In this document: piece by piece, positions 21,001 through 24,000 of the stretch
Position numbering within the stretch: the first letter of the stretch is position 1
Layout of the letters: every line of letters starts with the position of its first letter
DNA from: Candidatus Omnitrophota bacterium
GTDB lineage: Bacteria; Omnitrophota; Gorgyraeia; JAFGHF01
Assembly (NCBI GenBank): GCA_016939375.1
Contig: JAFGHF010000024.1
Span: forward strand, 9,828-73,827
Direction of reading: 5' to 3'
Length of the DNA: 64,000 nucleotides
Program-made: the position numbers

Positions 21001-24000
21001 AAGAGTTTTCAGAATTTAAAATCTTTAGTTTATAAAAGCGTACGGAGGATAAGATGAAACACTTAGACAGGTTGGAAAATCAGAGTATTTACATAATCCG
21101 TGAGGCATATAGCCAGTTTAAGAAAGTGGCTATGCTTTGGTCGATAGGCAAAGATTCGACCACCCTTCTTTGGTTGGCCAGAAAGGCATTTTATGGAAAG
21201 CTCCCTTTTCCGGTAATGCACCTGGATACGGGATATAAGTTCAAGGAGATCTATGAATTCAGGGATAAATATGCCAAAGAATGGGGGCTTGACTTGATCG
21301 TCAGCAAGAACCAGAAAGCGCTAGACCGGGGCGTGAGTCCGACAAAAGGAAAGCTGGAGTGTTGCACCGAGTTAAAGACAAACGCATTAAAAGAGGCTAT
21401 TGCCCAAGGCGCCTTTCGGGCCCTTTATCTGGGTATCCGCAGAGACGAACACGGCATTCGGGCAAAGGAGAGATATTTTTCACCGCGGGATGAGGATTTC
21501 GAGTGGAACTACAAAGAACAGCCACCGGAGCTCTGGGACCAATATAAGACCAAGGCAAAAGATGAGGAACACATCCGCGTGCACCCTCTGCTGGGATGGA
21601 GGGAAATAGATGTCTGGCAGTATATTAGAAGGGAGGATATTCCTATAGTAAGGCTTTATTTTGCCCAAGGCGGCAAAAGATACAGAAGCATCGGTTGCGA
21701 GACCTGCTGTAACCCTGTCGAATCCACCGCCGATACCATCGATAAAATTATTGAAGAGTTGAAGACCTCTAAGGTATCAGAAAGAAGCGGCCGGGCGCAG
21801 GATAAGGAATCGGCCTATATGATGCAAAAACTGAGATCATTGGGATATATGTGATCTTAATTCAAAATTAAAAATTGAAAATTCAAAATTGAAAATTTAA
21901 AACTGGAGATGAAAAATGGAGGAATATAAGGATGCACATTGGCGTTCACTTTTTAAAGCCTTAAGCTGGAGGATCCTGGCTACAGCCTCGACGATACTTA
22001 TAGTATATACTTTCACTCATAAGCTTGTCCTTTCTTTAGAAGTAGGCGCTGTCGAGGTAGTGGTAAAATTGATTCTCTATTACGTACACGAGCGGGCCTG
22101 GTTGTCTGTTCCTTTGGGTAGCAAGATACACCCGCTTTCGTCTCTGCCAGTTAAAGACGCTATAAAAGAAGAAGATATGGAAAAAATCAAAATCAAACTA
22201 AAAGAATTGGGGTACTTAGATGAAATCTGACGTAAATGCACTTAAATTCGTTATAGTCGGTCATGTAGACCACGGTAAGTCCACTCTTATCGGCAGACTT
22301 TTCTTTGATACCGATTCCCTGTCAGCGGATAAAATGGAAGAGGTAAAGGCGGCCTCCAAAGACCTGGGCCGCCAGACAGAGTTTGCTTTTCTGCTGGACC
22401 ATTTGCGTGAAGAAAGGGAACAGGGCATTACCATAGATACGGCACAGACATTTTTTAAGACCAAAAAGAGGGAGTATGTGATCATCGATGCCCCCGGACA
22501 TCGTGAGTTTGTGAAAAATATGATAACCGGGGCCTCGCAGGCAGAGGCAGCCGTTTTAATAATCGATGTCGACCAGGGGGTGCAGGAACAGACCAGGCGC
22601 CATGCATATATTTTGGCTATGCTGGGTTTAGAACAGGTGATAGTCATCCTCAATAAAATGGATTTGGTGGGTTTTAGCAAAGATAAGTTTGAGCAAGTCC
22701 GGACTGAGGCCGAGAAGTTTTTACAGTCCATCAATATCAAGGCCAAGTTTTATATCCCTGTATCAGCGATCAAGGGAGATAATGTGGCCAAAAGATCAAA
22801 AAATATGAAATGGTATGACGGCTTGACTGTATTGGAGAGCCTGGATGCTTTGCAAAATAGGGTTTCTGCGGAGAATAAAGCGCCGGTTATGCCTGTGCAG
22901 GATATCTATAAAATCGGTGAAAAAAGGATCATTGCCGGCAGGATTGAAGCTGGAGTAATCAAGAAAGGACAAAAAGTGAAGATACTGCCAAGCGGAGAAG
23001 ACACAGAGGTCAAGTCTATCGAGAAGTTTTTGCAGAAGACCGATAAGTCCGTTGCCGGAGAAAGTACCGGTATTACTACCAGCACACCCGCCTTTTTGGA
23101 GCGAGGAAATATTATCTGTGCAGGGGATGGGCAACCAACCTTAACCGATTCTTTTAGGGCAAATATCTTTTGGATGGCCAGAGAGAACTTTGACAAAGAG
23201 CAGAAGATCACCTTAAGATGTGCTACCCAGGAGATATCCTGCAAGATCGAAAAAATAGTCAAAAGGATGGATTCTTCCACCCTGGAAGTCATCGAAGAAG
23301 ATGCCGCCACATTAAAACCGTTAGAAGTGGGAGAGGTCCTGATCAAGACCAAGCGTGCGGTTGCCATCAAACGCTTTAATGACCTGGAAGAGCTAGGCAG
23401 ATTTGTCTTGGTAAAGAATGAAAATACCTGTGCCGGTGGGATTATTACGGAGGTGTAATCTTGGTGTTTGATAATAGCAGAAGACGTACTTTTGTATTGG
23501 GGTTAGACGGGGTGCCCTATTCTTTTCTCAAACAGGCCTTTGCCAAGGGACAAATGCCGCACCTGGCTAAAATGGCAGGGCAAGCGGGCTTGAAAAAAAT
23601 AAACTCCGTATATCCTACTATCTCATCAGTGGCCTGGACCAGCTATATGACCGGAGTAAACCCTGCTGAGCATAATATTTTTGGATTTGTTAATAGGAAT
23701 GCTGACCCTTTTAGGATAACTATACCCACTGCCCAAGACAGGAAAGCAGAGACGATATGGAGCGCGCTTTCCCGGCAAGGCAAGCGGGTCATAGTAATTA
23801 ATGTACCTTTGACCTATCCTCCCGAAGAAGTAAACGGCATACTGGCTTCCGGTTTCTTGTGTACAGATATTGAAAAATGTGCCTACCCAGCGAGCTTTAA
23901 TAGATATCTAAAAGAAAAAGACTATATTATCGATGTTGATGCCTGGCTGGCGCGCAGTAACAAAAAGGAAGAATTTATGCAGCAGTTGCACCAGGCCATG

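Follow-up and report, generated by a model that had tools for sequence, protein, structure and literature searches.

A DUF2061 membrane protein with a CysD-type C-terminal motif, encoded between cysD and cysN in Candidatus Omnitrophota: a candidate membrane module of sulfate activation

The window analysed in this study is a stretch of 64,000 nucleotides (nt) from Candidatus Omnitrophota bacterium (assembly GCA_016939375.1, contig JAFGHF010000024.1, forward-strand positions 9,828 to 73,827). Within it, a small gene for a membrane-type protein of the family DUF2061 (domain of unknown function; Pfam PF09834) lies between the sulfate-activation genes cysD and cysN. The features of this gene, of its product and of its two neighbours are as follows, with coordinates in the window.

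21054..21854, + strand: cysD, short type, 266 amino acids (aa), ending ...MMQKLRSLGYM (NF003587, 365.6 bits at a cut-off of 195; PF01507)
21855..21915, + strand: AT-rich spacer between cysD and the DUF2061 gene, 61 nt, with a tandem repeat and a GGAGA site
21916..22230, + strand: DUF2061 gene, ATG start, 104 aa, with a match to PF09834
21952..22101, + strand: DUF2061 core helical hairpin, residues 13-62 (Pfam match, invariant columns and AlphaFold2)
22129..22149, + strand: linker motif HPLSSLP, residues 72-78 (from alignments; kept in the tail-bearing subfamily)
22168..22218, + strand: C-terminal tail EEDMEKIKIKLKELGYL, residues 85-101, a predicted amphipathic helix capped by LGY-hydrophobic (AlphaFold2 helix 85-98)
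22220..22230, + strand: overlap of the DUF2061 stop and the cysN start, 11 nt, ATGAAATCTGA
22220..23458, + strand: cysN, 412 aa, EF-1alpha-like GTPase (TIGR02034, 360.7 bits at a cut-off of 336.1; PF00009, PF03144, PF22594)

The open reading frame (ORF) at 21916..22230 is a genuine gene and a tail-bearing member of DUF2061. Its product matches PF09834 with 63.3 bits (cut-off 23.1, E 2.9e-17) over residues 13-62 and model positions 2-51 of 52; this was the sole Pfam match of the 104-aa protein, and an NCBIfam search gave none. An identical protein is present in NCBI as 'DUF2061 domain-containing protein [Candidatus Omnitrophica bacterium]', from a metagenome-assembled genome (MAG). NCBIfam identifies the flanking genes as cysD and cysN, and the pair comprises a CysD with the PP-loop ATP pyrophosphatase fold and an adjoining CysN of the EF-Tu-like GTPase type. 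This bears out an earlier note on this DNA, which had placed a DUF2061-like membrane-type protein of 104 aa between the two; cysD is thus not directly followed by cysN in the window. A GGAGA Shine-Dalgarno sequence (21905-21909) stands 6 nt 5' of the ATG, and the stop codon TGA (22228-22230) falls 11 nt inside cysN, whose ATG is at 22220, an overlap that the same note had described. Two other loci (L007 and L135) have the same overlap of 11 nt, and the distance from the DUF2061 stop to the cysN start is between -28 and +8 nt in 14 of 17 loci. On the other side, the gap between cysD and the DUF2061 gene is 0-4 nt in 13 of the 17. The 61-nt spacer of the window is unusual, as most related loci have 0-4 nt there; its tandem repeat (21859-21917) is AT-rich, with units of 7, 14 and 21 nt (AATTCAAAATTAAAAATTGAA), and no terminator-like site was found between cysD and the ORF. 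The DUF2061 gene is probably co-transcribed with cysD and cysN, and translationally coupled.

Around 50 homologues at 58-76% identity keep the full length of the protein, hairpin and tail alike. AlphaFold2, run on the alignment of homologues, predicts helices at residues 3-34 and 37-64 (predicted local distance difference test, pLDDT, 88-94), a short linker, and a C-terminal helix at residues 85-98 (pLDDT around 80). The segments 20-34 and 37-57 are uniformly hydrophobic, with a mean hydropathy of 1.79 and 1.90, so the protein has the two hydrophobic helices forming a hairpin that are typical of DUF2061. Residues R10, S11, K14, W18, R19, T23, T26, G44, E47, K51, Y55, Y56, H58, E59, R60 and W62 are invariant or nearly so. 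Two conserved collars, the first made of R10, S11, K14, W18 and R19 and the second of Y55, Y56, H58, E59, R60 and W62, flank the hydrophobic segments on the same, cytoplasmic, side, and helix 2 itself contains the conserved residues E47 and K51. A Foldseek search of the AlphaFold2 model against the PDB gave no significant match, the best being the two-helix assembly factor Vma21p (E 3.2). Likewise, searches of Pfam, NCBIfam and the PDB did not reveal membership, by sequence or fold, in any of the known sulfate permease families (SulP, TSUP/CysZ, CysP/PiT, CysZ-Ecoli, SulT ABC). The family is large (4519 sequence clusters with E <= 0.001, in a set of representatives at 50% identity), and the protein of the window belongs to a subfamily defined by the linker HPLSxLP and the tail ...IKxKLKELGY(I/L); other DUF2061 proteins end right after helix 2.

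The genomic neighbourhood of DUF2061 was assessed in a scan seeded with the DUF2061 protein, which covered one genome per species and gave 558 relatives. The 80 best loci were analysed, a selection that over-represents the clade closest to the query. It was found that cysD and/or cysN lies within 6 kb of DUF2061 in 57 of the 80 loci, and a Sat-APS kinase (adenylylsulfate kinase) gene or cysH lies near it in 7 more, so that 64 of the 80 have a sulfate-activation gene within 6 kb. Viewed from the DUF2061 side the genomic linkage to sulfate activation is strong, and DUF2061 is no sporadic neighbour of these genes, as the earlier note had required of its proposal. The linked loci span Omnitrophota, Planctomycetota, Bacteroidota, Proteobacteria and archaea. 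The order cysD-DUF2061-cysN, with or without a phosphodiesterase gene following, occurs in Omnitrophota, Planctomycetota, Sumerlaeota, Woesearchaeota, Methanosarcinales and Thermoplasmata; Saprospiraceae have DUF2061-cysC-cysD-cysN, and Algoriphagus has an assimilatory operon of the order Rrf2-DUF2061-cysH-cysD-cysN-sulfite reductase. The annotated symbiosis plasmid of Mesorhizobium loti carries nodBC, nodIJ, a sulfotransferase gene, DUF2061, cysD and cysN in this order, and the DUF2061 gene of the Mesorhizobium nod locus is listed as of unknown function (bioRxiv 10.1101/2022.04.26.489235). Some DUF2061 genes have no sulfur context, e.g., Caulobacter CC_0155, P. aeruginosa PA3237, and plasmid copies in Bradyrhizobium and Chondrinema. 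Fusions of Sat, the homomeric ATP sulfurylase, with APS kinase adjoin tail-less DUF2061 genes in two loci (L060, 4275-5972, with the C-terminus ...NLGYLRS; L010, 2124-3854, with ...KEGYIGPNG), so DUF2061 is linked to the non-homologous Sat-type sulfurylase as well. In a Methanosarcinales locus, an ORF of 312 aa with a LAGLIDADG domain lies between cysD and DUF2061 (L021, 3119-4057).

DUF2061 is also found fused to enzymes of the same pathway. Pfam scans revealed a DUF2061+APS kinase fusion (L015) and a CysN+DUF2061 fusion (L052), and among the family representatives the arrangements APS kinase+DUF2061, DUF2061+APS kinase, and tandem DUF2061 (DUF2061x2) followed by an inositol-monophosphatase-family (CysQ-like) domain. 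The C-terminal domain of CysN is joined to DUF2061 in at least 12 distinct clusters, one of which comes from a Methylocystis MAG, and tandem DUF2061x2 forms are common. Since cytoplasmic enzymes are fused at either end of the hairpin, both ends would face the cytoplasm (N-in/C-in), and the bias of K/R residues to the termini is consistent with this predicted topology. Several stand-alone DUF2061 proteins of around 100 aa are named 'adenylylsulfate kinase' in JGI records (P0005, P0017, P0020, P0033, P0034, P0040, P0046), probably through annotation transfer from the DUF2061-APS kinase fusions.

A second scan, seeded with the CysD of the window, yielded 80 metagenomic loci (L081-L160) with CysD at 71-83% identity. 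DUF2061 lies between cysD and cysN in 10 of these, and tblastn located it in 5 further loci, giving 15 of the 80 in all; it stands elsewhere in the cassette in L081, L086 and L087. About half of the 80 have cysD directly followed by cysN. A TauE/TSUP permease gene (PF01925) is present in 21 loci and occupies the slot between cysD and cysN in around 14 (e.g., L082, 1770-2615; L120, 4825-5709); it never occurs together with DUF2061 (0/80; hypergeometric p = 0.006, a value that ignores shared ancestry and truncated contigs). Because DUF2061 is present in only 15 of the 80 and TauE can take its place, DUF2061 is an optional accessory of the cysDN cassette, and its slot otherwise goes to a putative sulfate permease. 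The expectation of the earlier note that the ORF would persist in close relatives was not confirmed: it is absent from around 80% of those with the same cysD-cysN-phosphodiesterase cassette, an outcome that the note had itself named as speaking against its proposal. Other genes are seen in the slot too. Some cassettes have a HIT-family gene (PF01230) ahead of cysN, with cysD or DUF2061 on its other side (L152, 4799-5245; L149, 3528-3998; L016, 6198-6659); the slot holds an arylsulfotransferase-like gene in L096 and a DUF2490 gene in L082 and L104.

Five proteins of the window end in L-(K/R)-x-L-G-Y-hydrophobic, namely, CysD, the DUF2061 protein and the products of three genes further downstream. 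These three are listed here together with the gene that directly follows cysN.

23461..24738, + strand: phosphodiesterase/nucleotide-pyrophosphatase-family gene, without an LGY tail (PF01663, E 1.7e-38)
29256..30476, + strand: sulfatase-family protein without a signal peptide, ending ...RRLRSLGYFDESL
33627..34547, + strand: weakly sulfatase-like protein of 306 aa, ending ...EKLKALGYLE (PF00884, E 0.0019, below the cut-off)
37392..39062, + strand: phosphodiesterase-family protein, ending ...QKLSDLGYL (second-best window match to the DUF2061-tail profile)

An LGY-tail set was defined here (it is not a published family) as an [ED]-rich stretch followed by I/V-K/R-x-K/R-L-K/R-x-L-G-Y-hydrophobic within the last 14 residues, and residues 85-101 of the DUF2061 protein agree with it. 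The pattern is present in 108 of the 1354 ORFs of L081-L160, i.e., 79 CysD, 13 DUF2061, 14 small proteins encoded upstream of cysD and 2 phosphodiesterase-like proteins, and in none of the unrelated ORFs among them. Thirty tails from these four protein classes align in register and without gaps over around 18 residues. The gap-free alignment and the confinement of the pattern to four classes argue that the KLKELGYL helix is a real motif, specific to this system. The resemblance of the DUF2061 tail (...KLKELGYL) to that of CysD (...KLRSLGYM) is at the level of a motif: a DUF2061-tail profile ranked the other window tails 2nd, 5th and 6th among 277 window ORF segments at E values of 0.4-4, and its match to CysD was not significant (E 1.4). 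The CysD-like tail of the earlier note therefore stands as a highly specific C-terminal pattern and lacks a significant profile match. With a net charge of -1 on the tail and a hairpin already present in the protein, a cationic amphipathic membrane-targeting helix of the MinD/FtsA type was rejected.

The tail has a wider distribution than that of a cytoplasmic enzyme complex. In L008, three sulfatase/phosphodiesterase-family proteins with signal or TAT-like (twin-arginine translocation) N-termini and a ...LRSLGYV tail flank cysD-DUF2061-cysN (459-1880; 1940-3364, - strand; 7418-8851, - strand), so cytoplasmic proteins are not the only carriers of the tail. Many loci encode, immediately 5' of short-type cysD, small ribbon-helix-helix (RHH)-like proteins of 60-110 aa that end in ...RLRSLGYL (L016, 4616-5176; L021, 1700-2256; L105, L109, L123, L130, L131, L134, L139, L147-L150, L152, L153 and L157). 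The one in L016 matches RHH_1 with an E value of 1.1e-5, others of the small tailed proteins only with around 0.03, and they could be operon regulators with a CysD-like tail. Its presence on RHH-like proteins and on sulfatase-like proteins that carry export signals means that the tail is not simply a tag for a cytoplasmic membrane-bound complex, which weakens the proposal of the earlier note. DUF2061 as the general binding partner of the tail was rejected as well, as the tailed RHH-like proteins occur in loci without DUF2061.

Taken together, we tentatively favour, at somewhat short of an even chance, the reading that DUF2061 is a membrane tether or scaffold that holds the sulfate-activation enzymes at the membrane, at the point of sulfate entry. 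The two-helix hairpin would lie in the cytoplasmic membrane, both of its ends facing the cytoplasm, and would serve as a membrane module devoted to sulfate activation, keeping the activating enzymes at the inner membrane face beside sulfate entry. In other lineages, the link would be covalent, with DUF2061 fused to CysN, to APS kinase or to a CysQ-like phosphatase. In the tail-bearing subfamily it would be non-covalent, and we infer that the helix ...KLKELGYL, which reproduces the C-terminal end of the short CysD encoded beside it, may dock on the CysD/CysN complex and so bring it to the membrane. Papers citing PDB entry 1ZUN state in general terms that CysN contacts CysD where EF-Tu contacts aminoacyl-tRNA. 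The module is optional, and a TauE/TSUP-type permease can replace it in its operon slot. The membrane anchor proposed in the earlier note gains from the natural fusions to CysN, CysC and CysQ-like domains, which an anchor predicts, and loses from the frequent use of the same slot for a TauE/TSUP permease. Its suggested connection to lipid-linked glycans does not serve as a general explanation and is not needed, because operons of purely assimilatory type, with genes for CysH and sulfite reductase, contain DUF2061 too.

Several observations weigh against the tether. An invariant polar stripe within the membrane (E47 and K51, together with R19, T23 and T26) and nearly invariant collars would be superfluous in a passive anchor, and assimilatory operons such as that of L030 have no obvious need for one. 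DUF2061 is carried by only 15 of the 80 close cysD relatives, and its mutual exclusion with TauE (p = 0.006) fits a role in transport at least as well. As to docking, the tail profile does not find CysD significantly, the tail is also borne by sulfatase-like and phosphodiesterase proteins with signal or TAT-like N-termini, and tail-less DUF2061 genes still lie between cysD and cysN in L006, L009, L016, L149 and L150, so the tail is not the sole link to the enzymes.

The main alternative, which appears rather unlikely, is that oligomers of the DUF2061 hairpin form a minimal sulfate (anion) channel or permease feeding ATP sulfurylase, with fusion or tail docking serving the hand-over of substrate. 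The permease that takes the same slot in close relatives, without DUF2061 in any of the 80 loci, speaks for such a role, and CysZ of C. glutamicum, a TSUP member with its gene inside a cys operon, transports sulfate (PMC5840216). The invariant charged and polar residues inside the helices and at their cytoplasmic mouth (R19, E47, K51, Y55, Y56, H58, E59, R60) would suit a conducting path, and the common tandem forms resemble small transporters that arose by duplication. A channel would also fit the linkage to Sat-type sulfurylase (L010, L060) and to assimilatory operons without another transporter gene (L030, L052), and no known sulfate permease domain was detected in the scanned ORFs of the 64-kb window. 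However, the protein offers just two short hydrophobic helices of around 15 and 21 residues with a turn of 2-3 residues, it has no similarity to any transporter family in Pfam or by Foldseek against the PDB, and sulfate import leaves the fusion to a CysQ-like 3'-phosphoadenosine 5'-phosphate phosphatase unexplained; in addition, neither phylogenetic non-independence nor truncated contigs are taken into account in the exclusion statistic. The tether and the channel are not mutually exclusive.

It is improbable that the tail acts instead as a mimic of the CysD C-terminus, by which DUF2061 and the tailed RHH-like proteins would sense unbound CysN or CysD, or compete for it, so that the gene would regulate complex assembly or cys operon expression and not provide a scaffold. 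The position of the RHH-like genes directly upstream of cysD in many loci (L016 in particular), the almost invariant tail of short CysD, and the dispensability of the DUF2061 gene in most relatives agree with a regulator; tail-less DUF2061 proteins nevertheless keep the same genomic position, and the enzyme fusions point to a structural, not a regulatory, role. There is similarly little to recommend LGY as a generic homodimerization or helix-capping element of each protein family, with the DUF2061 core acting on another partner, for instance as a membrane-protein assembly factor, without any direct docking on CysD or CysN. Such an element could account for the tail on exported and cytoplasmic enzymes alike and for APS-kinase C-termini beside DUF2061 that also end in ...GYI or ...GYL (L010, L060); the tandem forms suggest that the hairpin works as a dimer, and the best, non-significant, structural match is the assembly factor Vma21p. 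The motif is, however, restricted to proteins of the cassette in the loci examined, and the enzyme fusions indicate that the core itself is wanted beside the pathway enzymes. Lastly, a functionless hitch-hiker or annotation artefact, to which the absence of the ORF from most close relatives and its unusual repeat-bearing spacer might point, is effectively excluded by a family of 4519 clusters with invariant residues, the retention of the tail in around 50 homologues, the conserved operon packing and the recurrent fusions.

The neighbouring genes of the window have features of their own. The CysD falls below the cut-offs of the CysD equivalog models TIGR02039 and NF009214 and is therefore of a divergent short type. 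It aligns to PDB 1ZUN chain A with its C-terminal tail included, and lacks around 35 residues of canonical CysD (1ZUN 232-266); the tail reads KLRSLGYM in 67 of 83 short-type sequences. Its CC...CxxC(C) cysteines align with the iron-sulfur ligands of adenosine 5'-phosphosulfate (APS) reductase (2GOY). C103, C104, C215 and C218 are invariant in all 83 short-type sequences and absent from canonical CysD, which suggests that the short type may be an iron-sulfur-containing CysD. A homologue of the phosphodiesterase-family gene at 23461..24738 lies directly 3' of cysN in around 30 related loci of L081-L160 and also in L003, L007-L009 and L014; as the gene that directly follows cysN in most short-type cassettes, it is their usual fourth member. 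Upstream of cysD, a gene for a MarR_EPS-like regulator (20415-21035) is preceded by a carbamoyltransferase (PF02543/PF16861), an SxtJ-family (PF19588) and a DUF5989 (PF19451) gene at 17799-20236, and the 64-kb window as a whole forms a single + strand supercluster for glycan biosynthesis, with nucleotide-sugar enzymes, glycosyltransferases, a flippase-like protein and a carbamoyltransferase. In Pfam and NCBIfam scans the CysN of the window has no APS-kinase domain; tblastn of the window for APS kinase, CysQ, CysH and sulfotransferase found nothing, and by tblastn and Pfam together the window has neither an APS kinase nor a sulfotransferase of the 3'-phosphoadenosine 5'-phosphosulfate (PAPS) type. 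The alkaline-phosphatase-superfamily enzymes of the window may, for this reason, use APS. A more far-reaching scheme, and quite an unlikely one, would make oligomeric DUF2061 hairpins a new family of minimal sulfate channels or permeases feeding a membrane-docked ATP sulfurylase, with the LGY tail as the docking code by which a membrane-bound factory for sulfation is put together; alkaline-phosphatase-superfamily enzymes transferring sulfate from APS would be part of it, because the locus lacks APS kinase and PAPS-type sulfotransferase.

In the literature searched, no function has been assigned to DUF2061, which is treated as unknown wherever it is mentioned; new relative to that literature are the subfamily with the tail, the link of the family as a whole to sulfate activation, and the finding that a TSUP permease alternates with DUF2061. 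A large DUF thereby gains a testable assignment, as a membrane module of the sulfate-activation pathway, which is relevant to sulfate entry and to membrane-organized sulfation. Some organisms are without any recognized sulfate transporter (reviewed in PMC5840216), and DUF2061 is a candidate for filling this gap. The short cysteine-rich CysD, together with the proteins that share its C-terminal helix, suggests an undescribed assembly or regulatory code, and the database habit of naming stand-alone DUF2061 proteins 'adenylylsulfate kinase' in JGI records is corrected here.

The protein of the window shares with the uncharacterized 'predicted membrane protein' family PF09834 the full-length model match, the K..SWR and YYxHERxW collars and the two-helix hairpin. 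It differs from other members, which are tail-less, tandem or enzyme-fused, in a 40-residue C-terminal extension (HPLSxLP and ...KLKELGYL) that is found in one subfamily only. With the CysN-DUF2061, DUF2061-APS kinase, APS kinase-DUF2061 and DUF2061x2-CysQ-like fusions it has the hairpin and the pathway in common, whereas its hairpin is a separate polypeptide, so any link to an enzyme must be non-covalent. As in the fpr2-cysIXHDNYZ operon of C. glutamicum, with CysZ of the TSUP/TauE type, a membrane protein is encoded inside a cysDN operon, yet the two are unrelated in sequence or fold: TauE has around 8 helices in around 280 aa, DUF2061 2 helices in 104 aa. The canonical CysD C-terminus (...SMEEKKRQGYF, 1ZUN chain A), with which the short CysD tail aligns, shares with the DUF2061 tail a basic helix with G-Y-hydrophobic after it; the CysD chain stops at this motif, whereas DUF2061 and the other tailed proteins have 0-5 residues beyond it. 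In the nod loci of Mesorhizobium, the DUF2061 protein is tail-less and encoded upstream of cysD, on the nodH-type sulfotransferase side of nodPQ/cysDN, and CysN carries an APS-kinase domain; as in the window, DUF2061 adjoins CysD/CysN, and there the pair supplies activated sulfate for a glycolipid made at the membrane.

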